Under the pieces are notes generated by a model. The model was given only the letters and a program-made list of their open reading frames with translations. It had not been told where the DNA came from and ran no database searches. The translations under genes and the position numbers were made by a program. This document shows, one piece after another, positions 1 to 30,526 of a DNA stretch of 64,000 nucleotides. Source of the DNA: a virus. Location: the IMG/VR virus record IMGVR_UViG_3300032224_001591, positions 64,001 to 128,000 of that record; one strand, given 5' to 3'. Each line of letters begins with the position of its first letter. Positions within the stretch are counted from its first letter, which is position 1.

Positions 1-2
1 AT

Positions 3-3000
3 GGCTCTTCAGGTTTATCAGGTAATAGTGGGTTAAGTGGAACTTCAGGTTCAACGGGTTCATCAGGTTCAAATGGTAACGATGGAGCTAATGGTTTATC
101 AGCATTAAGTGGTACTTCAGGTACTTCAGGATCAAATGGTTCAAGTGGTAATGCTGGTTCATCAGGTTTAAGTGCATCATCAGGTTCATCAGGTTCAAAT
201 GGTTCTTCAGGAAATACAGGTTCAAATGGTTTAAGTGCATTAAGTGGTACTTCCGGATCTACTGGTACTAATGGTTCTAGCGGAAATGCAGGTTCAAACG
301 GTCTATCTGCTTTATCAGGTACTTCAGGTTCAACTGGTTCAAATGGTTCTTCAGGAGCAGCAGGTCAAAGTGGTTTAAGCGCAACTTCAGGAACTTCAGG
401 TTCTTCAGGTTCAACAGGAGTAGCAGGATCAAGTGGTTTAAGTGCAACCTCAGGTACAACTGGATCAAATGGTTCAAGTGGTGTAGCTGGTTCAAATGGT
501 TTATCTGCTTTATCAGGTACAGCAGGTTCATCAGGTACAACCGGATCAAGCGGTGTTGCTGGTGCATCAGGGACTAGTTCAACGTCGGGAACTTCAGGTT
601 CGACTGGTACCACAGGTTCAAATGGAAACGCAGGAGCTAGTGGTTTAAGCGCAACTTCAGGTTCATCAGGTTCAACAGGTTCAAATGGTACAAGCGGTAA
701 TGCTGGTTCAGCAGGTGCAAGTGCTTTATCTAATACAAGTGGTAGTTCAGGTTCTTCAGGAACATCAGGTTCTACAGGTGCCGCCGGTGCTAGTGGAGCA
801 AGTGCAACTTCAGGAACATCAGGATCTACAGGATCTAATGGTTCAAATGGAGTAGCAGCTTTAAGTGGTACAGCAGGATCTTCGGGTTCTAATGGTAGTT
901 CAGGAGAAGCAGGTACATCAGGTACATCTTCAGGCTCTGTTTCAGGTACTTCAGGTTCAGGTGGTTCAAGTGGTACTTCAGGTAATGCTGGTTCTACAGG
1001 TGCTTCTGCTTTATCAGCAACTTCAGGTTCATCTGGCTCTAGTGGTACAACTGGTTCTTCAGGTATAGCTGGAGGTAGCGGAGCAAGCGCAACTTCAGGT
1101 ACATCAGGAACTACAGGTTCAAATGGTACCTCAGGAAATGCAGGTTCTTCAGGATTATCTGCTTTATCAGGTACATCCGGTTCAACAGGATCAAATGGTT
1201 CAAGTGGTGCAGCAGGCGCAAACGGATCTTCAAATATAAGTGGAACTTCAGGATCTTCAGGTTCTGCCGGTTCAAATGGTAATGCAGGTAATAATGGAGC
1301 TAGTGCAGTAAGCGGAACTTCAGGTTCAACTGGATCTAATGGTTCTAGTGGTATAGCAGGTTCAAATGGTTTATCAGCATTTGCTGGAACTTCAGGTTCA
1401 ACAGGTTCAAACGGATCTACAGGTGTAGCTGGAACTTCAGGAAATAGTAATACAGCCGGAACTTCAGGTTCATCAGGTTCAAATGGTACAAGCGGTAATG
1501 CTGGTTCAGCAGGTGCAAGTGCTTTATCTAATACAAGTGGTAGTTCAGGTTCTTCAGGAACATCAGGTTCTACAGGGGCTGCTGGAGCAAGTGCTGCTTC
1601 TGCTTCTTCAGGAACTTCAGGTTCAAGTGGAACAAGTGGAAATGTAGGTTCAAATGGTTTATCAGCTTTAAGTGGAACTTCAGGCTCAACTGGATCTAAT
1701 GGTTCTAGTGGTGCTGCTGGAGCTTCAGGTTTAAGTGCAACTTCAGGAAGCTCAGGAACTTCAGGTTCAAGTGGTACCACAGGTTCTACCGGAGCTTCAG
1801 GTTCAGGAGCAGCTAGTGGTACATCAGGTACTTCTGGTTCTACTGGTTCTAGTGGTACAGGAGCAAGTGGTACTTCAGGATTAGCAGGTACTTCAGGTAC
1901 ATCAGGCTCAACTGGTTCTTCAGGTGTAGCAGGAGCAAGTGGTTTAAGTCGTTCATCAGGTACTTCAGGATCAACAGGTTCTGCAGGTTCAAATGGTGTT
2001 GATGGAGCTATAGGTTTAAGTGGATTAAGCGGTTCAGCAGGTTCATCAGGTTCTAGTGGTACAACAGGTAACGCTGGTTCTGTAGGAGCAAGTGCAGCAA
2101 GTGCAACTTCAGGTTCTTCAGGTTCTTCAGGATCAACTGGTACTTCAGGTTCAAATGGTAATGCTGGAGCTAGTGGAAATAGTAATACATCAGGAACTTC
2201 AGGTTCTACAGGTACTGTAGGTTCTTCAGGTGCTGCTGGTACTTCAGGCAACGCAGGTTCTTCAGGAGCAAGCTCAACTTCAGGTTCAACTGGTACTTCA
2301 GGTTCTAATGGTGCAAGCGGTAATGCTGCTACAAGTGGTTTAAGTTCAACTTCAGGAAGCTCAGGTACTTCAGGTTCAACTGGTACAACGGGTTCTGCGG
2401 GTGCAGCAGGCGCTTCAGGTGCTAGTGCACTTTCAGGAACTTCAGGTTCATCAGGTTCAAATGGTACAAGTGGTAATGGTGGTTCAAATGGTAATGCTGG
2501 TACTTCAGGTATTTCAAATACTTCAGGATCTTCAGGAACTTCAGGTTCTAGTGGTCTTAATGGTGGAGCAGGAGCTTCAGGTTTAAGTGCAACTTCAGGG
2601 ACATCCGGTTCTTCAGGTTCATCAGGTTCGAATGGTAATGCAGGTGCAAGCGGAACTTCAAATATAAGTGGTACTTCAGGTTCTACAGGTTCAAATGGTA
2701 CATCAGGTAATGCCGGTGCAAATGGAGCTTCTGCAGTTAGTGGAACTTCAGGATCTACAGGTTCTACAGGTTCAAATGGTGCAGCAGGTGGAAATGGAGC
2801 TTCTGCAGTAAGCGGAACTTCAGGTTCAAGTGGTACAACAGGTTCTTCAGGAGCTAATGGCGGTGCTGGTACAAGTGGAATAAGTAATACTGCTGGTACT
2901 TCAGGATCAACTGGTACAAACGGCTCTTCAGGAGCAGCAGGTGCTAGTGGTGTAAGTGGTTTAAGCGGTACTTCAGGTACAACTGGTACTACAGGTTCAA

Positions 3001-4440
3001 ATGGTGCGGCTGGTGGAAATGGTATTTCAAATGTAAGCGGAACTTCTGGTTCTTCAGGTTCTACAGGTTCATCAGGTAATGCTGGGGGAAATGGAGCTTC
3101 AGCAGTAAGCGGAACTTCAGGTACATCCGGTTCTAACGGTACCTCAGGTAACGCTGGAGCTAATGGTGTTTCAAACGTATCCGGTACTTCAGGATCTTCA
3201 GGTTCAGCAGGTTCAAATGGCGCTGCTGGTGGAAACGGAGTTTCAAATGTAAGTGGTACTTCAGGTACAACAGGTTCAAACGGTACAAATGGTAATGCAG
3301 GTGCAAATGGAACTTCAAACATATCTGGAACTTCAGGTTCATCAGGTTCTACAGGTTCATCAGGAGCAGCAGGAGGTAATGGAGCTTCAAATATAAGTGG
3401 TACTTCAGGTACAACAGGTTCAACAGGTTCATCTGGTAATGCTGGAGGAAGCGGTACTTCAAATGTATCAGGAACTTCTGGTTCTACGGGTTCAACAGGT
3501 TCCTCAGGTAATGCTGGTGGAAATGGAGCTTCAGCCGTGAGCGGAACTTCAGGTACAACAGGATCTTCAGGATCTTCAGGTGTAAGTGGTGCTAATGGGG
3601 GAAGCGGAACTTCAGGTGTAAGCGGAACTAATGGTTCTAGCGGATCAGCAGGTATAAGCGGTGCAAATGGAGGAAATGGAACTTCAGGTGTAAGTGGTAC
3701 AAACGGAACAAATGGTTCTAATGGTACAAGCGGTGTAAACGGAGTTTCAGGCGCTAGTGGTTCTTCAGGAACTTCAGGTGGAAGTGGTACTTCAGGTACA
3801 ACTGGTTCAAACGGATCTTCAGGTGGAAATGGTGTAGCCGGAGCAAGTGGTGCCAGCGCAACTTCAGGTTCAACTGGTACAAACGGTTCATCAGGTGGAA
3901 ATGGTGTTGCTGGAGGAAGTGGTGTAAGTGCAACTTCAGGTACAACTGGTTCAAACGGATCTTCAGGAAATAATGGTGCTAATGGTGCTAGTGGAGTTTC
4001 AGGTGTAAGTGGAACTAACGGTACAACAGGTTCAAATGGAGCTAATGGTGGTAACGGCGTAAACGGAGCTTCAGGTACTTCAGGTGTAAATGGTACAACA
4101 GGTTCAAACGGAGCTGCAGGTGGTAACGGTGTAAATGGTGCCAATGGTACAAGTGGTGTTAATGGTACAACAGGTTCTAATGGTGCTGCAGGTGGAAATG
4201 GAGCTAATGGTGCTGGAGGTACTTCAGGTGTAAACGGATCTACAGGTTCTAATGGAGCGGCAGGTGCTAGTGGTGTTAATGGTGCTGGAGGTACTTCAGG
4301 TGTAAATGGTACAACAGGTTCAAGTGGTGCTGCTGGTGGTAATGGAGCTAATGGTGCTAATGGTACAAGTGGAGTTAATGGTACAAATGGTACTTCAGGT
4401 GCGGCTGGTACAAGTGGACAATCAATTAATGGTACTTCAG
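3..4440 (+). repeat. 9-nt-period Gly-X-X coding repeat (GGT TCA TCA / GGT ACT TCA etc.) with higher-order units
   Basis: Continuous GGN codon every third codon, interrupted periodically by Ala/Asn (GLSALSGTS, GTSNISGTS). Confidence 0.95.
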
Positions 4441-4913
4441 GTATTAGTGGTGGTTCATTTACAAATCAACCAGATTATTTAGTTAGAACAACAAGTGCAA
4501 CACAAGTACAAAGTGTAAGTTTCTTAAAAGCGGATACAACAAACACTAGATTAGGTATTAATAATGCTTCACCGTCATATACATTAGATGTTGGAGGTGA
4601 TATATATGCATCTAATAATGTTATAGCTTATTCTGATGAAAGAGTTAAAGAAAATATTGTAACAATTAGCAATGCTTTAGATAAAGTTAAAAATCTTAGA
4701 GGTGTTAATTATACAAGAAAAGATATTAAAGACAAATCATTACAAATGGGTGTTATTGCACAAGAAGTTCAAAAAGTAATCCCAGAAGTAATATCTGTTA
4801 GAGAATCGGATGGTCATTTAGCTGTAGCCTATGCAAATATAGTTGGTTTATTAATTGAAGCAATAAAAGAACAACAAAAACAAATTGACGAGTTAAAAGT
4901 AAAATTAAAATAA
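3..4913 (+). CDS. Giant Gly-X-X (Ser/Thr/Asn/Ala-rich) repeat tail fibre with C-terminal peptidase S74 intramolecular chaperone domain; 5' end lies before the window
   Basis: The frame of ORF 3537..4913 is open from position 3 (GSSGLSGNSGLSGTSG...). I read 3-365 directly. The antisense ORF 365..4144 has no Tyr/His/Gln, which excludes sense-frame stops there. C-terminal YSDERVKENI...GVIAQEV...YANIVGLLIEAIKEQQKQIDEL is the typical S74 chaperone signature. Confidence 0.85.
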   Translation, partial: GSSGLSGNSGLSGTSGSTGSSGSNGNDGANGLSALSGTSGTSGSNGSSGNAGSSGLSASSGSSGSNGSSGNTGSNGLSALSGTSGSTGTNGSSGNAGSNGLSALSGTSGSTGSNGSSGAAGQSGLSATSGTSGSSGSTGVAGSSGLSATSGTTGSNGSSGVAGSNGLSALSGTAGSSGTTGSSGVAGASGTSSTSGTSGSTGTTGSNGNAGASGLSATSGSSGSTGSNGTSGNAGSAGASALSNTSGSSGSSGTSGSTGAAGASGASATSGTSGSTGSNGSNGVAALSGTAGSSGSNGSSGEAGTSGTSSGSVSGTSGSGGSSGTSGNAGSTGASALSATSGSSGSSGTTGSSGIAGGSGASATSGTSGTTGSNGTSGNAGSSGLSALSGTSGSTGSNGSSGAAGANGSSNISGTSGSSGSAGSNGNAGNNGASAVSGTSGSTGSNGSSGIAGSNGLSAFAGTSGSTGSNGSTGVAGTSGNSNTAGTSGSSGSNGTSGNAGSAGASALSNTSGSSGSSGTSGSTGAAGASAASASSGTSGSSGTSGNVGSNGLSALSGTSGSTGSNGSSGAAGASGLSATSGSSGTSGSSGTTGSTGASGSGAASGTSGTSGSTGSSGTGASGTSGLAGTSGTSGSTGSSGVAGASGLSRSSGTSGSTGSAGSNGVDGAIGLSGLSGSAGSSGSSGTTGNAGSVGASAASATSGSSGSSGSTGTSGSNGNAGASGNSNTSGTSGSTGTVGSSGAAGTSGNAGSSGASSTSGSTGTSGSNGASGNAATSGLSSTSGSSGTSGSTGTTGSAGAAGASGASALSGTSGSSGSNGTSGNGGSNGNAGTSGISNTSGSSGTSGSSGLNGGAGASGLSATSGTSGSSGSSGSNGNAGASGTSNISGTSGSTGSNGTSGNAGANGASAVSGTSGSTGSTGSNGAAGGNGASAVSGTSGSSGTTGSSGANGGAGTSGISNTAGTSGSTGTNGSSGAAGASGVSGLSGTSGTTGTTGSNGAAGGNGISNVSGTSGSSGSTGSSGNAGGNGASAVSGTSGTSGSNGTSGNAGANGVSNVSGTSGSSGSAGSNGAAGGNGVSNVSGTSGTTGSNGTNGNAGANGTSNISGTSGSSGSTGSSGAAGGNGASNISGTSGTTGSTGSSGNAGGSGTSNVSGTSGSTGSTGSSGNAGGNGASAVSGTSGTTGSSGSSGVSGANGGSGTSGVSGTNGSSGSAGISGANGGNGTSGVSGTNGTNGSNGTSGVNGVSGASGSSGTSGGSGTSGTTGSNGSSGGNGVAGASGASATSGSTGTNGSSGGNGVAGGSGVSATSGTTGSNGSSGNNGANGASGVSGVSGTNGTTGSNGANGGNGVNGASGTSGVNGTTGSNGAAGGNGVNGANGTSGVNGTTGSNGAAGGNGANGAGGTSGVNGSTGSNGAAGASGVNGAGGTSGVNGTTGSSGAAGGNGANGANGTSGVNGTNGTSGAAGTSGQSINGTSGISGGSFTNQPDYLVRTTSATQVQSVSFLKADTTNTRLGINNASPSYTLDVGGDIYASNNVIAYSDERVKENIVTISNALDKVKNLRGVNYTRKDIKDKSLQMGVIAQEVQKVIPEVISVRESDGHLAVAYANIVGLLIEAIKEQQKQIDELKVKLK
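676..1576 (+). repeat. 103-bp direct repeat pair (676-778 and 1474-1576) inside the fibre gene
   Basis: Both copies read caggttcaaatggtacaagcggtaatgctgg...ggaacatcaggttctacagg. Confidence 0.85.
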
Positions 4914-5543: not shown

Positions 5544-5573
5544 TTTGGATTTTCAAAATAAATTTCATATATT
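5544..5573 (+). promoter_or_regulatory. Putative phage promoter TTTGG-N19-TATATT
   Basis: Exact spacing shared with 8-9 other sites; lies just upstream of the 5595 ORF. Confidence 0.7.
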
Positions 5574-21991: not shown

Positions 21992-24900
21992 ATGAATATA
22001 GTAGGAGAAGGATTTGCCAAAGAAATTATTGATCAAATAGACACTCGCCAAAAATTAAAAGGTAAACGTGATCGAAATCTTGGAGGAAATCCAGAATGGT
22101 TAGTTTGGCAAAATGGAAATACAGGATGGGTTAAAATGATATCATCAATAGATGTTGATCCTGAAAAAAAATATTTTAATACTGGATCCGTTGTAACAAA
22201 CCCCGGTGTAGCACCTGGACCCGATAACTATATTAAACTTGAAAATAGTAATACCCCTATTTATTACTCAGGCAGAGGATCAGCATCTACTAATCCTAAT
22301 CAAAATCTTACTAGAGGAGATGCTAATAATTTATTAGCTAGATCAAACATATTAATGGGGGGAATTTATACTCCATATAATTTAATCCGATCAGAGGAAA
22401 ATAATAATCTTCAAGCAGGTATATCTCGTAATGGTTCTTTTCAAAATCCAAACGCTTATGGGTTTGGTGGTTTAGAATTTGGTTTACAACCAATTCCAGG
22501 TATTACTTCATTTAATATTAGAAGTGAAAATAGAGGTTCAATAAGAACGGCAACTATTGGTATTCGTGCTTATAATAAAGTACAATTTGATATTATTAAT
22601 ACACTGTATATGAGTTTAGGTTACACTATGCTTATTGAATGGGGAAATACTATGTATTATGATAATAATAAACAATTTCAATCTAATAATCAATACAGTT
22701 TACAAGATGAATTTTTATTAGGACAACCAAAATGGACTGGGCTTTTAAAATTAATGAAAGAAAAAAGAGCAGCATCAAATGGAAATTATGATGCTGCTTT
22801 AGGTAGAGTAGTAAATTTTAATTGGAAATTAAATAAAGATATGAGTTATGATATTACTGTAACTTTATTAACAGTAGGTGATATAATTGAATCTTTAAAA
22901 ATAAATACTTTATCTAATAATTTCTCATTAAATATTAAAAATCCAACAGCACCCCAACCAAATACACCTATAACTCAATCCGTAGATAAATTCGCAGGGT
23001 TAGGATTAACAGAGCAACAAAAAGAAATATTTAATTCTATTAATGCTTCTATAAATAAAAATGTTCCTTTAGGTCAAGTAGCAGATATTTCAAATTATGC
23101 TAATTCTCACGATATTGGAGCTTTATTATATCAACATAAACAAAATTTAGATGCTAACGGAATAGAATCAACTATTAATAAAACAACAAGATTTTTAAAA
23201 GATAAAGATATTGTTACTGATATATCTCAAACTTTTAATAATATTTCTAATCCAAAAGATATTCAAAGTCAAACAGTTTATTACATGCATTTAGGATATT
23301 TTTTGTTTTTATTAGAAAAATATATTATACCTAATATTAATGGTGATGATACATTAAAATCAATTAAAATAGATTATGCTATAAATTCTAATATTATTTC
23401 TATAGATCCTCTTTTAGTAAGTGCTGATCCTACAGTTTGTTTACTTAGTCGAAATATAACTTTAAAACCAAGTAATACAACTATATCTTTTATACCTGAA
23501 GGAAATAAATTTCCATTTCAATTAAAAAATAAAGATGGTAGTAAAAGTAAAGAATTTTATGGATATTTAATGAATATTTATATTAATTATAATTGGATAC
23601 TTAATAATTTAAATACTTTAGTTGACAATGAGGGAAATGTTGTTTTAATTGATTTTTTACAAAGATTATGTATTGATATTTGTCGTGCTACGGGTAATTA
23701 TAATAAAATTCAACCTGTAGTAAATAATGAAGATTTAACTATACGTTTTATAGATGAAGTAGCTCTTCCTAATAGAGATTATTTTTTAAAAAAATTCGAC
23801 CTTCCAACTAATCCCGCACATTTTAGAATGTACGGATATTATCCTACAGATACCACTTCAGATAGTGTATTAGAAGCAGGAATAGTTAGAGATTTAAATT
23901 TAGTAACTACTGTATCTCCTAGATTAGCTAATATGCTTACTATATCTGCTCAAGCTCATTCATATGTGGTAGGTGAAGATGCAACGGCATTATCAACGTT
24001 AACTAGAGGATTAACTGATCGGATAAAAGAAAAAGTTTATTATCCGGGACAAAAAACAGATATAGCAACTGAAAAAAATTTATATGAACAATATACTAAA
24101 GTTATTGAAAACTTTAATAATTTTTTGAAAAAAATAGGATCGGAACCTGGTACTCCACCTTCTTGGAATCTTAATGAAATTGAAATATATTTAAATACTA
24201 ATAAAGCTTTTATTGAGTATAACCAAGCAAAAGCCACATTAGAAAAACAAAAAACAGATCCTAGTGCTGGGTCAGCTAAAACAGGATTTTTACCTTTTAA
24301 TTTAAATTTTACAATAGATGGAATTTCAGGTATAAACATATATCAACGATTTATAGTTGATACAGAATATTTACCCCCTAATTATCCGGCAAATATAGAA
24401 TTTTTAGTAATGGGGGTAACACATGAAATAAAAGAAAATCAATGGCTTACTCATATAGACTCTGTAGGTATTCCTAAAAATCCTCTTAATGGTAATTTTG
24501 AAGATACAACAACAGAAGATAGACAACCTACTATGGAAAAAATTCCTGGTAAACAACCTACTCCTGTTAAATCATCTACTAATCCAGTACCAACACTTAA
24601 ACAAGCTGTTAAAGATCAAGCAGAATATTATTTCGGAAAATATGGAGAGGGTCTTAAATGTGCTCGTTGGACTTATAATATAGCTTATAAGTTAAAAGAA
24701 TACATAGATACTAATAGTACAAAAGCTATTCCTTTTAATTTACAATTCTCCGATAATGCTGACTCAAACGCATGGAGAGATTATGTAAATAAATTAGGTT
24801 TTTATGATAAAGTTTTTGTAGGTGACATGAATCTTGATCAATTAAAAGCATGGATAAATAACAGTACATTTAATTATGGAGATATTTTAAATTATTATGC

Positions 24901-25126
24901 CCCAGGACACACTGCTAGAACTAACATGCATACCCAAATATATACAGGAAATATTTTCTCTACTGGAGGCTCAGCTGGTAAAAATAAAAATATAATACCT
25001 AACTCCGCAGGAAACTCAGGGTGGTCAACATCTACAAAAACAAACTATGGAACAAAAGTAGTTTATAATAATAATTATACTTATAAAGTGTACTATTTTA
25101 AAGTTAAATCACAATATATAAAATAA
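21992..25126 (+). CDS. Large baseplate hub protein with putative C-terminal Cys/His (NlpC/P60/CHAP-like) hydrolase domain
   Basis: PGITSFNI...GSIRTATI and LPFNLNFTIDGISGI...VTHEI..NQWLT (hub-like). After a Pro/Thr linker: KCARWT...GDIL...MHTQIY. Confidence 0.55.
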   Translation: MNIVGEGFAKEIIDQIDTRQKLKGKRDRNLGGNPEWLVWQNGNTGWVKMISSIDVDPEKKYFNTGSVVTNPGVAPGPDNYIKLENSNTPIYYSGRGSASTNPNQNLTRGDANNLLARSNILMGGIYTPYNLIRSEENNNLQAGISRNGSFQNPNAYGFGGLEFGLQPIPGITSFNIRSENRGSIRTATIGIRAYNKVQFDIINTLYMSLGYTMLIEWGNTMYYDNNKQFQSNNQYSLQDEFLLGQPKWTGLLKLMKEKRAASNGNYDAALGRVVNFNWKLNKDMSYDITVTLLTVGDIIESLKINTLSNNFSLNIKNPTAPQPNTPITQSVDKFAGLGLTEQQKEIFNSINASINKNVPLGQVADISNYANSHDIGALLYQHKQNLDANGIESTINKTTRFLKDKDIVTDISQTFNNISNPKDIQSQTVYYMHLGYFLFLLEKYIIPNINGDDTLKSIKIDYAINSNIISIDPLLVSADPTVCLLSRNITLKPSNTTISFIPEGNKFPFQLKNKDGSKSKEFYGYLMNIYINYNWILNNLNTLVDNEGNVVLIDFLQRLCIDICRATGNYNKIQPVVNNEDLTIRFIDEVALPNRDYFLKKFDLPTNPAHFRMYGYYPTDTTSDSVLEAGIVRDLNLVTTVSPRLANMLTISAQAHSYVVGEDATALSTLTRGLTDRIKEKVYYPGQKTDIATEKNLYEQYTKVIENFNNFLKKIGSEPGTPPSWNLNEIEIYLNTNKAFIEYNQAKATLEKQKTDPSAGSAKTGFLPFNLNFTIDGISGINIYQRFIVDTEYLPPNYPANIEFLVMGVTHEIKENQWLTHIDSVGIPKNPLNGNFEDTTTEDRQPTMEKIPGKQPTPVKSSTNPVPTLKQAVKDQAEYYFGKYGEGLKCARWTYNIAYKLKEYIDTNSTKAIPFNLQFSDNADSNAWRDYVNKLGFYDKVFVGDMNLDQLKAWINNSTFNYGDILNYYAPGHTARTNMHTQIYTGNIFSTGGSAGKNKNIIPNSAGNSGWSTSTKTNYGTKVVYNNNYTYKVYYFKVKSQYIK

Positions 25127-25760: not shown

Positions 25761-25794
25761 TTTGGAGATTTAAAAAACAGGTCGTATATTTATA
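25761..25794 (+). promoter_or_regulatory. Composite promoter TTTGG-N19-TATATT overlapping TATTTATA
   Basis: tttggagatttaaaaaacaggtcgtatatttata. Confidence 0.7.
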
Positions 25795-25812
25795 ACAATA
25801 AAAACATAAAAC

Positions 25813-26478
25813 ATGAAAAAACAAATTAACGAAATTAAAAGAATGCAGCATATTGCTGGATTAATCACTGAAAGCGAATACCGTCAATCATTAAATGAAG
25901 AAACTAATGAAGAAACACTTGATGATGTTACTTTTACTTTAGATATGGCATTAAATAATATGTTTCCAATGTATGGATTTAAAGCAGGAGACACAGTTAC
26001 AGGTATTTTACCAGCTGAAGAATTTGCTGATGAAACTAAACGCAATAGTGCTGAGGATTTTCAAGCAGCACAAGCTTACATTAAGAATAAGGGAGGAGAA
26101 ATAAAAATTAATTCAAGTGATCCTTATCTTATGTTTAGAAATATAAACATAACATATAAATTGAAAGATAATGGAGATATTGAATACGCAGTAGAAGTTC
26201 CAGCTAAAAAAATGGACGAAGCTGAAATAAAAGAAGAAGAAAAAGGTCTTCCTTTTTTACTAGCTAAAACATGGTTAAACGAATATAATGGTAATATTCA
26301 ATTTGCGGTCCGTACAGAAGAGATTATAGGTTTTTTATACAATTTAAGAGATAAAGAATTTAAACAATATAAAGGAGAAATTGAACGTATGTACTTACCA
26401 TATAAAAAAGCTAAAGACGCTTTTGAAAAGTTATGGGATGAAGCATCTGTTTTTTCAGATAAAGATCTTAAAGACTAA
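25813..26478 (+). CDS. Leader-family protein 1 (putative internal head protein)
   Basis: N-terminus MKKQINEIKRMQHIAGLITESEY; acidic body. Confidence 0.7.
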   Translation: MKKQINEIKRMQHIAGLITESEYRQSLNEETNEETLDDVTFTLDMALNNMFPMYGFKAGDTVTGILPAEEFADETKRNSAEDFQAAQAYIKNKGGEIKINSSDPYLMFRNINITYKLKDNGDIEYAVEVPAKKMDEAEIKEEEKGLPFLLAKTWLNEYNGNIQFAVRTEEIIGFLYNLRDKEFKQYKGEIERMYLPYKKAKDAFEKLWDEASVFSDKDLKD

Positions 26479-26479
26479 A

Positions 26480-27111
26480 TAAATAATAAAAACATAAAAC
26501 ATGGCAAACGATTTTAAAAGAATGCAAAAATTAGCAGGTTTAATTACCGAAGCAAAGGCTGAAGTATATTCTTATGAGGCAACTCCGGAAAAACAAGCTT
26601 TATACGATAAAATTGCTACAGAATTAGAAAAACTTATTAAGGATATAGCTTCAAAACTAAAAATTAAACCATCTAACATTAGAATATCATGTGATGGGTT
26701 ATGGGATGATGGAGGTTATAAAAACAGAGGATTAGTAGTTCAAATTAAAGCTAATGATAATACATGGGAAAAACCATGGAAAGGAAATAATAGAATTATC
26801 CAAACCCCAAATAGTGAAGGTATATTAATACACCCCGGAATATCAGGTAATGGAATAGTTGGTCTAAAGTTAGATATGGATAACACGTATAATAAAGAAT
26901 TAGAAACTATTTACAAAAAAGCACGAGAACAAAATTTAGGTAAGTATGTATCCGATTTTAATGTTCAATTAGCAAACTCTCTTACACCACAAGAAATAAA
27001 ATTAATAGCACCAAACACTCCAATAATAGTAACCGGTAAATAATAAAAACATAAAACATGGCAAACGATTTTAAAAGAATGCAAAAATTGGCAGGTTTAA
27101 TTACCGAAGCA
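26480..27111 (+). repeat. 75-bp direct repeat pair (26480-26554 and 27037-27111, one mismatch) covering the translation-initiation region and leader codons
   Basis: taaataataaaaacataaaacATGgcaaacgattttaaaagaatgcaaaaatt(a/g)gcaggtttaattaccgaagca. Confidence 0.9.
26501..27043 (+). CDS. Leader-family protein 2
   Basis: MANDFKRMQKLAGLITEA followed by a unique body. Confidence 0.7.
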   Translation: MANDFKRMQKLAGLITEAKAEVYSYEATPEKQALYDKIATELEKLIKDIASKLKIKPSNIRISCDGLWDDGGYKNRGLVVQIKANDNTWEKPWKGNNRIIQTPNSEGILIHPGISGNGIVGLKLDMDNTYNKELETIYKKAREQNLGKYVSDFNVQLANSLTPQEIKLIAPNTPIIVTGK

Positions 27112-27567
27112 CAATCACAAAAATCAAAATATATCCTTACAGATGAAGAGGGTGATGTTTATTTAAACGACGATGCTATCAAATCATATCTTAAATCAGT
27201 AATCAATTCAGAAGAAATTGAATCTGTAAACGATTTTATGAACGATGAAGAAGGATTTGGAGAATCAGCAATGCATTTCTTTAAAGATGGTAGTGAAGAT
27301 ATATCGGATAAAGATGTTGAAGATTGGGCTAAACAAGAAATGAGCTACTATTTATATTCTGAACCTGATGAATTTCCAGGCAAAGAATTAAATGAAAATA
27401 TATCTGATGAAGCTATTGACCGTATGGAAGGTTTAGCTAACACACATCATTTATCAACTTTAAAATTCAGTTTAGAAAACCTAGTTCCAGAATGGATACA
27501 AGATGGAGGATTTGATGAAGATGATGTAATTGATTATTTAACACATTTAGTAAGAAACTCATACTAG
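27058..27567 (+). CDS. Leader-family protein 3
   Basis: MANDFKRMQKLAGLITEA; internal ELNE separating two acidic modules. Confidence 0.7.
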   Translation: MANDFKRMQKLAGLITEAQSQKSKYILTDEEGDVYLNDDAIKSYLKSVINSEEIESVNDFMNDEEGFGESAMHFFKDGSEDISDKDVEDWAKQEMSYYLYSEPDEFPGKELNENISDEAIDRMEGLANTHHLSTLKFSLENLVPEWIQDGGFDEDDVIDYLTHLVRNSY

Positions 27568-27611
27568 TAAAAAAAATCATATATTTATTATAAACATATA
27601 ACTGATAAAAC

Positions 27612-28121
27612 ATGAAAAAACAAATTAACGAAATCAAAAGAATGCAACTTATCGCTGGTTTAATTACTGAAAGTGAATATCAAGAGTCAATGACTAAAAT
27701 AGACGAATCTAAAGATATTAACCAAACCCTAACATCAGGAGGTTTTGATCCTATCGATGATGAAAAATTATTGATGAAAGCATCAAAAATTCTATCTTTA
27801 ATAGGTGGTAATCCAAGTGCAGAAGCAGTTAATGCTCTTGTTATGGTTATTGAAGATGCTGAAGGTGGAAATATATCTTGGAATGAATCAATGAACGAAG
27901 CTGAAGATACTTTATCATCATTTAAATCATTAGATCAAATGAATGATTATCTTGAAAAAGGTGGTTGGGATCCATATGAAGTAGCAGATGAAAAAGCAGA
28001 AAAAAAAGGTTTAATGTTAATCAACAAATATATTAAATCTAATATTTTAGATAAAGGAAAAACTTTATCCCCAAATAAATTAAATGCTTTGTTAATAAAA
28101 ATCGAAGATTTACTTCCTTAA
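27612..28121 (+). CDS. Leader-family protein 4 (two related internal modules)
   Basis: MKKQINEIKRMQLIAGLITESEY; GG(F/W)DP...DEK...NAL...IED occurs twice. Confidence 0.7.
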   Translation: MKKQINEIKRMQLIAGLITESEYQESMTKIDESKDINQTLTSGGFDPIDDEKLLMKASKILSLIGGNPSAEAVNALVMVIEDAEGGNISWNESMNEAEDTLSSFKSLDQMNDYLEKGGWDPYEVADEKAEKKGLMLINKYIKSNILDKGKTLSPNKLNALLIKIEDLLP

Positions 28122-28151
28122 TAAAACATAATTAAAATAAAAATTTAAATT

Positions 28152-28176
28152 AAGCTTGGGAAACCAAGCTTTTTTT
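28152..28176 (+). terminator. Rho-independent terminator closing the leader-gene array; overlaps a degenerate CTTGG-N19-TATCGT promoter
   Basis: AAGCTTGG-GAAA-CCAAGCTT followed by a T run. Confidence 0.8.
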
Positions 28177-28204
28177 ATTATCGTTATCGGAGACAATAGA
28201 GGTT

Positions 28205-29485
28205 ATGGCATTTTACTTAATAGAAAATACGGAACAATTATCAACGTTTTATTACCAAGAGTTCAAACGAGCTTTTGTAGAAGTAATTCCGTTTAATGAT
28301 TTAGTACACCCAACCTTAAATAAAGTATCATTAGTGTATATTAAACCCTTAACGGATGATAACGAAAAAGGTTACATGATATGCATTGACCATAGTGAAG
28401 CATTAAACGTGCAAATAAAACACGTAAATCAAGTACTTAAAAGCTTTGACGAAATATATGTTAGAGACAAGAAAACGTTTTTATACTACTTTCAACTTAA
28501 AAGCAGCTTAGACATTACCCACACCACTCCTACGTATATACACCCCACAACGCAAGTCCACACACATTTTTATAATACGTATTCTTCGCGACTTGATATA
28601 AACCGCATTATACCGCTAGTTAAACACTACCAACGTTGTGAAGCCATATTTGAACAAGTAAAAGATCATTGTGTAACCTTAACTAGTAAAACAAATGATG
28701 TCTTAGCATATTCATTTCTATTTATTGAAAAAAACGGCATCAAAATAGATGAAACATTATTTAAACAATACTTTAAACCTACAAATGAGTCATTTAGCAT
28801 TAAAGACGGTAAGATTTATACACAATATAACTTACATACTACAACCGGACGCCCCTCAAATAGTTTTAACGGCGTTAATTTCGCGGCTCTAAACAAAGAC
28901 AACGGCTGCCGACAAGCATTCATACCGGAACATGATCGATTTATGGAAATCGATATTTCCGCCTATCACCCAAATATAGTAGCGCAACTTGTTGATTATC
29001 GGTTTGATAAACCGATTTACGAGGCATTTGCCGAATATGCTGGTGTTGAAATAAAGCAAGCGAAGGAATTGATGTTTAAACAACTATACGGAGGAATATA
29101 TACGGAATATAAACAATGGGAGTTTTTCATTAAAGTACAGGAATATATAGATAAAATCTGGGAACATTTTGAAACGCTTAATTGGGTTATGGTTCCGAAT
29201 TCGGGTAAGTATTTTTATAAGGATAGATTGGGTGAAATGAATCCGCAAAAGTTGTTTAATTATTTTTTACAAAATTTGGAGACCGTAAATAACAGTCGTA
29301 TCATTCAGGATATAATTAAGGTTTTAAGAGGTAAAAATACAAAGTTGGTTCTTTATACTTACGATGCGTTCCTGTTTGACTTAGATGATACGGAAAAAGA
29401 TATTATTGACGAATTAAAAGAGATATTCAGTTCCAGGGAACTGCAAATAAAATATAAATATGGAACAGATTACGACTTTGAATAA
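28205..29485 (+). CDS. Family A DNA polymerase-like protein (short, 426 aa)
   Basis: TTTGRPSN, motif A IDISAYHPNI, motif B KELMFKQLYGG, motif C YTYDAFLFD. Confidence 0.8.
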   Translation: MAFYLIENTEQLSTFYYQEFKRAFVEVIPFNDLVHPTLNKVSLVYIKPLTDDNEKGYMICIDHSEALNVQIKHVNQVLKSFDEIYVRDKKTFLYYFQLKSSLDITHTTPTYIHPTTQVHTHFYNTYSSRLDINRIIPLVKHYQRCEAIFEQVKDHCVTLTSKTNDVLAYSFLFIEKNGIKIDETLFKQYFKPTNESFSIKDGKIYTQYNLHTTTGRPSNSFNGVNFAALNKDNGCRQAFIPEHDRFMEIDISAYHPNIVAQLVDYRFDKPIYEAFAEYAGVEIKQAKELMFKQLYGGIYTEYKQWEFFIKVQEYIDKIWEHFETLNWVMVPNSGKYFYKDRLGEMNPQKLFNYFLQNLETVNNSRIIQDIIKVLRGKNTKLVLYTYDAFLFDLDDTEKDIIDELKEIFSSRELQIKYKYGTDYDFE

Positions 29486-29933
29486 GCAGCGTAATATTTA
29501 TTGGGAGAATCTAAACGAAAGTTTTAACCTATTAAATATTACAGAATTGAATAATAGATTATTTTGTAGCTTTACTACCTTAGATGGCATCGATCCATTA
29601 GTAGAGAGTATAACAAATTCATATACGATAATGTACAACAAAATGTTTGTACTTTATATTAAGAGTACTGATGAGTACGTAGTTACATATAACGTTGAGC
29701 AAGGCAATGTTAGTGATATTCCTGACAATACTATATTGGTTCACAGGAAAAAGGAAAGCAATACATTATATACAATCAATGCGTTAAACGAGTTGATTAA
29801 AAAATTAAATGGTGGTGTTGTTAATCCTAAATTTATTATTGATTGGCAACATTATAGAAATTGTGTGTTGTTAACCAATCATAACGAGTTGAAACAATTG
29901 AATACTAAGATTTACAAGATAGTAGAGCTATAA
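29460..29933 (+). CDS. Conserved phage hypothetical protein
   Basis: TILVHRKKESNTLYTINALN motif; 157 aa. Confidence 0.6.
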   Translation: MEQITTLNKQRNIYWENLNESFNLLNITELNNRLFCSFTTLDGIDPLVESITNSYTIMYNKMFVLYIKSTDEYVVTYNVEQGNVSDIPDNTILVHRKKESNTLYTINALNELIKKLNGGVVNPKFIIDWQHYRNCVLLTNHNELKQLNTKIYKIVEL

Positions 29934-29959
29934 TATTTATACCGTACAAATAGAACACG

Positions 29960-30526
29960 ATGAACGAGTTTAAAAAAATGCAAAAATTGGCTGGTATTAT
30001 TACCGAGTCTCAATTAAACGAAGCTGAATTAGAAAATTATATGTTCTTTTCAAATTTAAAACAAATGAAAAGACAAATTGAAATGATGATGGAGATGGAT
30101 CCTGTTATGATTGATAGTATTCTTCAAAATGGCCATGATTGGGCTGACGATCATATTTCTGAAGCAAAAACTAATATGGATCAAGTATTTGATTTTTTAA
30201 AAAATGAAATGGATAAAAGTTATCCATTAAACGAAGAAGTATATGGTGGTCAATCCGTAGATAGAGGTGAAACTGGATCTTCAATTGAATTTGAAGTAAA
30301 AGAAAACACACCAGAATATTATACAATTGATTATACTATTACTCCTAATTCAAAATATTCATCTAGATCTGCTGCTAGAAATTATGTACGTACTAAAAAA
30401 AGCGGAACAGCACGAATTAAAAAAAATTACGATTCATCTCAAAAAGAATGGATAACAGTAGAAGGCGATAGTTTTCTCGTAGGTAAACAGTTCGCAAAAG
30501 AAATATTCGGCGATAAAATGGATTAA
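29960..30526 (+). CDS. Leader-family protein 5
   Basis: MNEFKKMQKLAGIITESQLNE; internal PLNEE; has its own ATATTTATA upstream. Confidence 0.7.
   Translation: MNEFKKMQKLAGIITESQLNEAELENYMFFSNLKQMKRQIEMMMEMDPVMIDSILQNGHDWADDHISEAKTNMDQVFDFLKNEMDKSYPLNEEVYGGQSVDRGETGSSIEFEVKENTPEYYTIDYTITPNSKYSSRSAARNYVRTKKSGTARIKKNYDSSQKEWITVEGDSFLVGKQFAKEIFGDKMD

Follow-up and report, generated by a model that had tools for sequence, protein, structure and literature searches.

The 64,000-nucleotide stretch analysed here (the window) corresponds to bases 64001-128000 of one 147,248-bp IMG/VR contig (IMGVR_UViG_3300032224_001591; CheckV completeness 93%), which belongs to a phage with 31.7% G+C and nearly all of its genes on a single strand. 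Five open reading frames (ORFs) of the window, starting at 25813, 26501, 27058, 27612 and 29960, share one N-terminal leader on otherwise different bodies, and the same motif is found at the extreme C-terminus of the protein treated here as the prohead scaffold of this phage. This leader is probably a capsid-targeting sequence (CTS) in the sense described for phage T4, one that would mimic the scaffold tail, be released by the prohead protease and be carried by a recombining set of passenger proteins. The match between leader and scaffold tail is a far more direct link of the leader to prohead assembly than the T4 analogy provides.

The leader motif in passengers and scaffold

The common N-terminus that had been noticed in a preliminary description of this DNA is present in all five ORFs. 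In the pattern x(F/I)K(R/K)MQx(L/I)AG(L/I)ITE, the residues K, M, Q, A, G, I, T and E do not vary, and alignability stops a few residues past ITE. A six-frame scan of the complete genome together with a leader profile revealed eight copies, namely the five N-terminal ones of the window, two further N-terminal ones and one at the C-terminus of the scaffold. The two genes outside the window are placed at genome position 28192 (a 248-residue protein whose leader runs ...RMQQLAGIKLNE) and at genome position 30861 (a long, acidic and repeat-rich protein of 491 residues with 9 [LI]xE sites). A shared short N-terminal segment of propeptide type thus precedes unrelated mature parts in the five window genes and in these two, with the pattern xF(K/R)RMQxLAG(L/I)ITE and a length of 16-20 residues over all seven.

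The head genes were found as three genes side by side, ~13 kb upstream of the window start. The first encodes a prohead protease of the Peptidase_S77 family (PF03420, the T4 gp21 family; E 4.8e-29) and the last a major capsid protein of the Gp23 type (PF07068; E 9.6e-74), both above the cut-off. Between them, a gene at genome 49795-50925 encodes a very acidic coiled-coil protein of 376-380 residues. The order protease, acidic protein, capsid protein is the 21-22-23 order of T4, and the acidic protein shows a weak local resemblance to T4 gp22 near LTESQK. Because of its position, its composition and this weak similarity, the protein is treated here as a gp22-like scaffold, which gives the genome a gp21-family protease, a gp22-type scaffold and a gp23-type shell. 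By capsid protein, Flavobacterium phage vB_FspM_immuto is the nearest named phage (55% identity), followed by Microcystis phage Mel-JY01 (49%) and Rhodothermus phage RM378 (34%). The present phage is distantly related to T4 and, in view of these nearest phages, its host is probably a member of the Bacteroidota. In a megablast search against isolate phages, no match to the cassette region was found.

A closer look at the scaffold showed that its extreme C-terminus carries the leader motif (...PIIEVNAAFERMQKLAGIKK-stop, ending FERMQKLAGIKK). The corresponding tail is VSRWQKLAGIIK in immuto and VERMKKLAGIVK in Mel-JY01, and variants of R(M/W/F)(Q/R/K)xLAG(I/L)xK end the scaffolds of 10 IMG/VR relatives; the tail is kept in every relative with a readable scaffold end, and in five further genomes a leader-profile match lies just upstream of the capsid gene. 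The similarity between scaffold and leader proteins is limited to this motif of 12-17 residues. The passengers do not appear to be scaffold paralogues, since a tblastn search with the scaffold matched only scaffold genes in the loci of the relatives and no leader ORF, and a repeat at a lax E-value returned nothing further. Mel-JY01 has the scaffold tail and lacks N-terminal leaders, and immuto, which grows on Flavobacterium sp. LMO8, has the tail together with two leader genes at about 25,061 and 111,675 of its record; the tail is therefore the older and wider feature, from which the N-terminal leaders look derived. The immuto scaffold (immuto26A_204, L005 3001-4242) is labelled in GenBank as a 'DNA polymerase phi-like protein'. 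Its gene is flanked by those for the protease and the major capsid protein, and its sequence can be aligned with the scaffold of the phage studied here; an acidic middle part of low complexity is almost certainly what produced this artefactual label.

The predicted protease site and its side

The protease gp21 of T4 cleaves after Glu in (L/I)-x-E (PMC9026906). A cleavage logic of this type had been proposed for the leader, and it is consistent with the gene content, as the phage encodes a protease of the gp21 family whose known (L/I)-x-E specificity (PMC9026906) fits ITE. Six of the seven N-terminal leaders of this genome end in ITE and the seventh in LNE, so that all would offer an (L/I)-x-E site. 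In a logo of 142 copies (consensus M-N-K-E-F-L-R-M-Q-K-L-A-G-I-I-T-E-S-Q-Y-K-x-K-L-N-E) ITE directly follows the motif and a second L-N-E appears ~9 residues further on. As ITE was part of the search pattern, 18 leaders from the same loci that fall outside this pattern were inspected. In about 15 of these variants, which had not been selected for ITE, an [IL]-x-E is retained no more than six residues from AG (IKLNE, VINE, LINE, ILKE, IQLNE, LKE and others), and homologues found through their bodies carry IISE and IIAE.

At the scaffold the arrangement is reversed. Every scaffold tail has I-(I/V/S)-E or L-N-E placed 7-8 residues upstream of R[MWF][QRK]xLAG, and other proteins with an internal or C-terminal motif have (L/M)-x-E just upstream of it, as in ...QLNE-SKNIKNRFQKLAGLN-stop of P0186. 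Judged from the sequences, the predicted protease site always lies between motif and body and switches side with the orientation of the motif, which is what a releasable docking peptide would need. The number of [LI]xE sites in the scaffold (15, with 8.3 +/- 2.5 expected) and the lack of enrichment in the passenger bodies (283, with 292 expected), four of which in this genome (three in the window) contain only 0-1 such sites, would fit a scaffold that is degraded and passengers that survive the protease, the signal being modest.

Spread of the leader

Among the IMG/VR matches listed, at least 148 leader copies were present on 120 contigs, nearly all of them 6-20 residues after the start Met; these counts, like those of the body clusters given below, are lower bounds. 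CheckV completeness implies genomes of ~160 kb for all 27 leader contigs of at least 40 kb. The gp23 gene and/or the S77 gene was seen in 15 of these 27 contigs and both in the three complete ones, and near-complete genomes contain 4-6 leader-profile matches each. Within the 50,697 records of isolate phages the leader occurs in immuto only, and the motif strings appeared in no paper found by literature search. The leader hence characterises a single T4-like clade that is abundant and almost uncultured. The degenerate DNA pattern for MQxLAGxITE that gave the IMG/VR copies matched only 13 times in 596 Gb of prokaryote genomes, a collection far larger than IMG/VR, with nine internal chance matches in large proteins and four leader-like ORFs on contigs of metagenome-assembled genomes; the recurrence of the motif is thus well in excess of chance.

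In 11 of the 15 fetched loci with a protease gene, a leader ORF is placed directly between the protease and scaffold genes, within the head-assembly module. As the loci had been picked for the motif, this fraction is biased; that the genes adjoin so exactly is nevertheless informative. In the present genome, the 190 nt that separate the protease and scaffold genes contain no remnant of a leader gene.

Cassette exchange and body modules

The window cassettes are located at two further slots, both of them conserved. Slot 1, between the gene that follows a 1044-residue baseplate-like protein and a family-A-polymerase-like gene, holds four cassettes in this genome, two in the relative L051, one in L088 and none in L069. 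Slot 2, between ORF157 and the gene for a gp32-like single-stranded DNA-binding protein, holds one leader gene here, and six relatives (L069, L085, L097, L114, L124 and L132) have at this place a leader gene whose body does not cluster with that of 29960.

The expectation that the cargo differs between close relatives was borne out by L051, where the breakpoints of identity are at the leader repeats. This contig shares 97% DNA identity with the present genome over the 425 comparable nt of the 3' flank, and the first 112 residues of its polymerase-like protein are identical to those of the protein encoded here. The alignment breaks exactly at the leader repeats. The cassette at 27058 is kept in the same slot (90.6% DNA identity over 27039-27717, 84% protein identity of the body), the last cassette (27612) has homologous leader and 3' flank with an unrelated body between the leader and the terminator region, and the cassettes at 25813 and 26501 are missing. 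These are, therefore, loci with variable passengers in which the conserved leader forms the recombination junction.

The bodies had been described as unrelated to each other. This stands for the window, where no pair among the five is similar at BLASTP E<1e-3 and full-length paralogues were not seen, but not for the clade as a whole, where the bodies are mosaics built from shared modules. A set of 137 complete leader ORFs fell into at least 79 single-linkage clusters (59 singletons), which are connected via shared modules and not through full-length homology. Thus, the N-module of 25813 is elsewhere joined to C-modules from the 27058 or the 27612 family, and a metagenomic protein combines the body of 26501 with the C-module of 27058. 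Three leader subtypes occur on homologues of the 26501 body, and four leaderless homologues start M-K-QAE..., exactly at the mature start that would follow ITE-A. With homologous bodies bearing any of three leader subtypes or none, the leader behaves as the modular tag that had been proposed.

Domain X of the 29960 protein (residues about 25-90, ENYMFFSNLKQMKRQIEMMMEMDP...) has 3,239 homologues, with 80-90% identity among metagenomic proteins. Most of them are proteins of 155 residues that begin with MKTVKLTESDITRLVKRVLSE and whose YPSAYANGYAVQVC tail contains Cys, and homologues are encoded ~3 kb from the gp23 gene in another T4-like lineage. The conservation of this domain is unusually strong for a phage ORFan. 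The first module of 27612 is found also behind another leader-like N-terminus, MDNFDLKKYLAEGKLLKE-E, and the string EGKLLKE recurs at module borders, which suggests that it may form protease-cut linkers in the mosaic proteins. Homologues of the 27612 module from other phages (P0176, P0180, P0182, P0188 and P0192) have the N-terminus M(D/N)NFDLKKYLAEGKLLKE-E.

Organisation of the window cassettes

The cassettes, their promoter-like boxes, the 75-nt junction repeats and the hairpin described in this section are on the plus strand. A promoter-like box, GTCGTATATTTATAACAA, with an A-rich initiation region (25774-25812; box 29 nt from the start) precedes cassette 1 (25813-26478, 221 residues), in which leader residues 1-20 (25813-25872, MKKQINEIKRMQHIAGLITE) are followed by an acidic body of two modules. 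Cassette 2 (26501-27043, 180 residues; leader residues 1-17 at 26501-26551, MANDFKRMQKLAGLITE) encodes a folded alpha/beta domain with an isoelectric point (pI) of 8.8 and zero (L/I)xE sites. Cassette 3 (27058-27567, 169 residues; leader residues 1-17 at 27058-27108) has a very acidic body (pI 4.05). A second promoter-like box, TCATATATTTATTATAA, with its initiation region (27569-27611) precedes cassette 4 (27612-28121, 169 residues; leader residues 1-20 at 27612-27671), whose body is again formed by two modules. The four-gene array ends at a terminator-like hairpin with a T-run (28152-28171), so that the proposed limits of the array, a promoter at one end and a terminator at the other, could be recognised as the promoter-like box before 25813 and this hairpin. 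Cassette 5 (29960-30526, 188 residues), preceded by the promoter-like box TAATATTTATACC (29933-29959), consists of leader residues 1-16 (29960-30007, MNEFKKMQKLAGIITE), the string SQLNE, domain X and domain Y.

The duplication of leader DNA that had been reported at 26480 and 27037 was confirmed as a 75-nt junction repeat in two copies (26480-26554 and 27037-27111) with 99% identity, each containing the stop codon of the preceding gene, a 19-nt spacer and 17 leader codons. The more diverged pair at 25813 and 27612 likewise extends beyond the coding region, over 113 nt with 78% identity (25787-25899 and 27586-27698).

The box ATATTTATA is located 27-32 nt upstream of 25813, 27612 and 29960. Boxes of this type are enriched in intergenic regions (35 of 44 matches) and lie 13-54 nt, mostly 20-40, 5' of gene starts. 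The motif (A/T)ATATTTATA occurs genome-wide, with window examples at 5568, 12263, 12556, 14756, 15336, 16911, 19299, 25784, 27580 and 29933, and a subtype, GTCGTATATTTA(C/A), precedes other genes; the two boxes may represent two promoter classes of the phage. An assignment of the ATATTTATA box as a late promoter was rejected, as it is found also before PhoH and other non-structural genes, whereas the scaffold and capsid genes lack it directly upstream. A generic sigma-70 scan gave 34 matches with 34 expected and was, hence, uninformative.

Several neighbouring genes deserve mention. A very long ORF at window 1-4913, open at its 5' end, has 45-47% G+C compared with ~31% genome-wide. The large baseplate-like protein (window 21992-25126; L051 7866-10718) has differing C-terminal domains in the two close relatives. 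The end of the L051 protein is VanY/peptidase-M15-like (...SNHGFGLAVDF...) and that of the window protein is a Cys/His-containing stretch with the appearance of a CHAP- or NlpC-type lysin; Pfam returned no match at E<0.001. The differing end may be a swapped virion-associated lysin. Between both cassette slots, a 426-residue ORF (28205-29485) gives a weak and partial match to family-A DNA polymerases (PF00476, E 3e-4, under the cut-off); it may represent a polymerase that is split or has diverged strongly. Immuto is named in papers on polymerase swapping.

Nature of the passengers

No credible match in Pfam or PHROGs was found for the five window proteins or for 108 leader proteins. The AlphaFold model of the 26501 protein (mean confidence, pLDDT, 78.8) shows a confident alpha/beta domain and a low-confidence leader helix. 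A Foldseek search with this model, which the preliminary description had recommended, found no fold relative in the PDB (best E 0.18) or in BFVD (best E 0.07). The best Z in a wide VIA-align comparison was 4.9, under the meaningful level, and a feature search of the ESM Atlas with the 26501 body returned no usable match. The model of the 29960 protein (pLDDT 57) was too poor for a fold search. The bodies have a median pI of 4.5, with 81% of them below 5.5 (44% of the proteome) and 3% basic (26% of the proteome). There was no indication of the anti-defence function suggested earlier. The bodies match no family or fold. That the passengers are delivered host-takeover or counter-defence proteins is conceivable, at somewhat worse than even chances.

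Proposed mechanism and alternatives

Starting from the motif in its two orientations, the flanking sites, the head genes, the spread through the clade, the cassette turnover and the modularity of the leader, we infer that the passengers dock, are cleaved, stay in the virion and are ejected into the host, as follows. The amphipathic helix F-x-R-M-Q-x-L-A-G-(I/L) would dock the passengers on the prohead site used by the scaffold tail, most likely the gp23-type capsid protein's inner face or N-terminal region, or alternatively the core of the scaffold. The activated Peptidase_S77 protease would then cut at (I/L)-x-E between motif and body, that is, at ITE and often also at the LNE ~9 residues later in the N-terminally tagged passengers, and at I-(I/V)-E, 7-8 residues upstream of R[MWF][QRK]xLAG, in the scaffold. 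This cleavage would free the passengers within the head and release the scaffold. At the DNA level, the leader with the upstream stop codon and spacer would serve as a portable junction for homologous recombination, through which cassettes could be inserted, deleted or swapped, leaving each phage with a differing passenger set. A prediction of the complex between capsid protein and leader gave no answer (score 0.00) and counts neither way. The original idea of a T4-like tag on swappable cargo is therefore sustained with regard to the protease, the modularity and the cargo exchange, and is not sustained with regard to an anti-defence role, a basic T4-like cargo and bodies that are simply unrelated.

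Several points weigh against a capsid-targeting role. The passengers are mostly acidic while T4 IPI-III are basic, and acidic proteins fit packed DNA less obviously. The window cassettes are surrounded by baseplate and replication genes, and their promoter-like box also precedes non-structural genes, so that late co-expression with the head genes is unsupported. The leaderless homologues are bodies able to work without packaging. The leader is better conserved than the scaffold tail, for which variants such as RMRELAFGNNK and RFKKLAGIN exist, and leader and tail need not, therefore, share one partner. Finally, no virion proteome of this clade was found in the literature.

The acidity of the bodies, a property they share with the scaffold, would also agree with a role of the tagged proteins as accessory scaffold or core proteins like T4 gp67, gp68 and IPIII, which would enter the prohead by way of the scaffold-like tail, contribute to building or sizing the head and then be degraded or expelled instead of being retained for delivery to the host. 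T4 cores contain several such proteins (PMC9026906, PMC9546572), and both the leader gene between protease and scaffold genes in the 11 loci and the long, acidic, repeat-rich 491-residue protein with its 9 [LI]xE sites would suit this role. The extreme turnover, however, with zero to four cassettes in slot 1 and unrelated bodies in slot 2 of six relatives, is unexpected for assembly factors; the bodies show no enrichment of cleavage sites, several having none, leaderless homologues are known and the 26501 body is compact, basic and folded. We regard this explanation as unlikely, though it is the best of the alternatives.

Less probable still is that the motif is a docking peptide for another common partner and not a capsid-loading signal as such, in which case its occurrence on the scaffold tail would reflect that partner. 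The candidates are the prohead protease, which would thereby recruit its substrates, the portal, a chaperone of phage or host origin, or a host protein. The stronger conservation of the leader relative to the scaffold tails and the location of some leader genes among early or replication genes would agree with this alternative. The motif is, however, confined to one T4-like clade, where it is found on the scaffold and beside a protease-type site that switches side; recruitment by the protease would itself happen inside the prohead, and the 596 Gb of prokaryote genomes contain no host copies beyond chance. A repeat selected as nucleic acid (a translation-initiation or regulatory RNA element, or a recombination hotspot) that encodes a functionless peptide could account for the extension of the 99%-identical repeat across the upstream stop codon and spacer in two cassettes, but is highly improbable, since M, Q, A and G are invariant over 154 copies with varying third codon positions (GCT/GCA/GCG/GCC, GGT/GGA/GGC/GGG and six Leu codons), an almost identical peptide is encoded by leaders that share only ~61% of their nucleotides, and the motif is present also at the C-termini of the scaffold and other proteins. 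This variation of third positions at invariant residues indicates that selection acts on the peptide and not on the DNA.

Comparison with known systems

The CTS of T4 targets proteins to the prohead core and is cut at L/I-x-E (PMC9026906, PMC3012670). The T4 internal proteins co-purify with gp22 and the CTS confers affinity for the core, the docking site not having been identified (PMC9026906). The leader described here resembles the CTS of IPI, IPII, IPIII and Alt, which gp21 removes, in being a short N-terminal propeptide on differing proteins that ends in (L/I)-x-E, in the company of genes for a gp21-family protease, a gp22-like scaffold and a gp23-type capsid protein, and in a passenger content that varies between relatives (PMC3012670, PMC9026906). 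A near-identical duplication of leader DNA between genes is likewise seen in T4, where ipII and ipIII begin with an identical 30-nt start encoding MKTYQEFIAE, followed by Ala. The two systems differ in that the present leader is a peptide of 16-20 residues, RMQKLAG(L/I)ITE as opposed to MKTYQEFIAE, not related to the T4 sequence; it equals the C-terminal tail of the scaffold and is not a T4-like 10-mer, the tag would be usable also at the C-terminus with the cleavage site on its other side, many leaders carry a second LNE, and the passengers are mostly acidic and not basic. By its sequence, then, the leader does not qualify as a homologue of the T4 CTS, whereas in its predicted architecture it corresponds to it.

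A second class of leaders, T4-like 10-mers of the form M(I/V)KLxxxLxE-(A/N), was found in four genes of the same genome (genome 24481, 37931, 38450 and 38764; L001 4481, 17931, 18450 and 18764), the first of which encodes a Zeta_toxin-like P-loop kinase (PF06414, E 3e-16). These 10-mers (e.g. MIKLLKILKE-A) resemble the start of T4 gp24 (MAKINELLRE-S), the CTS that T4's internal proteins carry and the N-terminus of the scaffold of this phage (MANRDILKE-A), and in immuto MIKLIDLLTES is present on the neighbour of one leader gene. Two tag classes thus coexist in one genome, one resembling the scaffold N-terminus and the other equalling its C-terminus. It is possible, if doubtful, that both scaffold ends are the templates of the two classes of cargo tag and that the passengers occupy the docking sites of the scaffold. 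In this scenario, the N-terminus MANRDILKE-A, like the gp22 start MLKEQLIAE-A in T4, would be the template of the 10-mer class (MIKLLKILKE-A in this phage, MKTYQEFIAE-A in T4) and the C-terminal tail RMQKLAGIKK that of the leader studied here, and the partner of the T4 CTS would be whatever binds the scaffold termini. The (L/I)-x-E sites at module borders (the EGKLLKE linkers and the second LNE) would let the protease release several modules from each mosaic, and the outcome would be a clade-wide arsenal, reshuffled by recombination, that is delivered together with the DNA.

Coat-binding tails at the C-terminus of scaffolds are present in P22 gp8, 80alpha gp46, SaPI1 CpmB and herpesvirus pre-VP22a. 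The herpesvirus maturation protease cuts the M-site just upstream of this tail and releases the scaffold, and CpmB is a foreign protein that copies the 80alpha scaffold tail to enter the procapsid. Encapsulins load diverse cargo into an HK97-fold shell through short N- or C-terminal peptides, with no scaffold, no protease release and no DNA. A general statement on coat-binding scaffold tails is contained in PMC9546572. The present motif shares with these tails a short amphipathic C-terminal peptide as conserved contact element, and the I-x-E placed 7-8 residues upstream of the motif in the scaffold would follow the same logic as the herpesvirus site. It differs from them in that the copied tail is at the N-terminus of many small unrelated proteins, with the site downstream. 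CpmB is a scaffold that redirects capsid size, in contrast to what would be a general loading tag in this phage. The likeness to encapsulin cargo peptides is confined to the loading of cargo by a terminal peptide, and no sequence relation is claimed.

In the giant phages SPN3US, phiKZ and 201phi2-1, head proteins are processed at x-x-E by a gp21-related protease, and the paralogues gp53 and gp54 have N-terminal residues in common, proposed to direct them to the prohead, that are identical (PMC5694885). The N-terminal propeptides of the ejection proteins in these phages differ from the present leader in their length (80-130 residues), in not being portable on dozens of unrelated bodies and in being unrelated to a scaffold tail; these phages are not known to have a counterpart of gp22.

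Biological significance

If the proposed role of the leader is correct, the binding partner of a CTS would be the site of the scaffold's own terminal peptide, and a simple rule would apply by which the protease site always separates tag from body, at whichever end the tag is placed. Cargo loading of the T4 type would then not be peculiar to the T-even phages. The leader would also be of use as a short, naturally occurring tag with which proteins could be loaded into Bacteroidota phage heads, and metagenomes could be mined for virion-delivered proteins by the leader alone. The tagged genes, at least 148 in number and with bodies in at least 79 clusters, constitute 'dark matter' for which neither Pfam nor PHROGs nor fold searches gave a match, and the loading of their products into the head would be a major trait, evolving rapidly, of a clade of ~160-kb aquatic phages that is abundant and almost uncultured.

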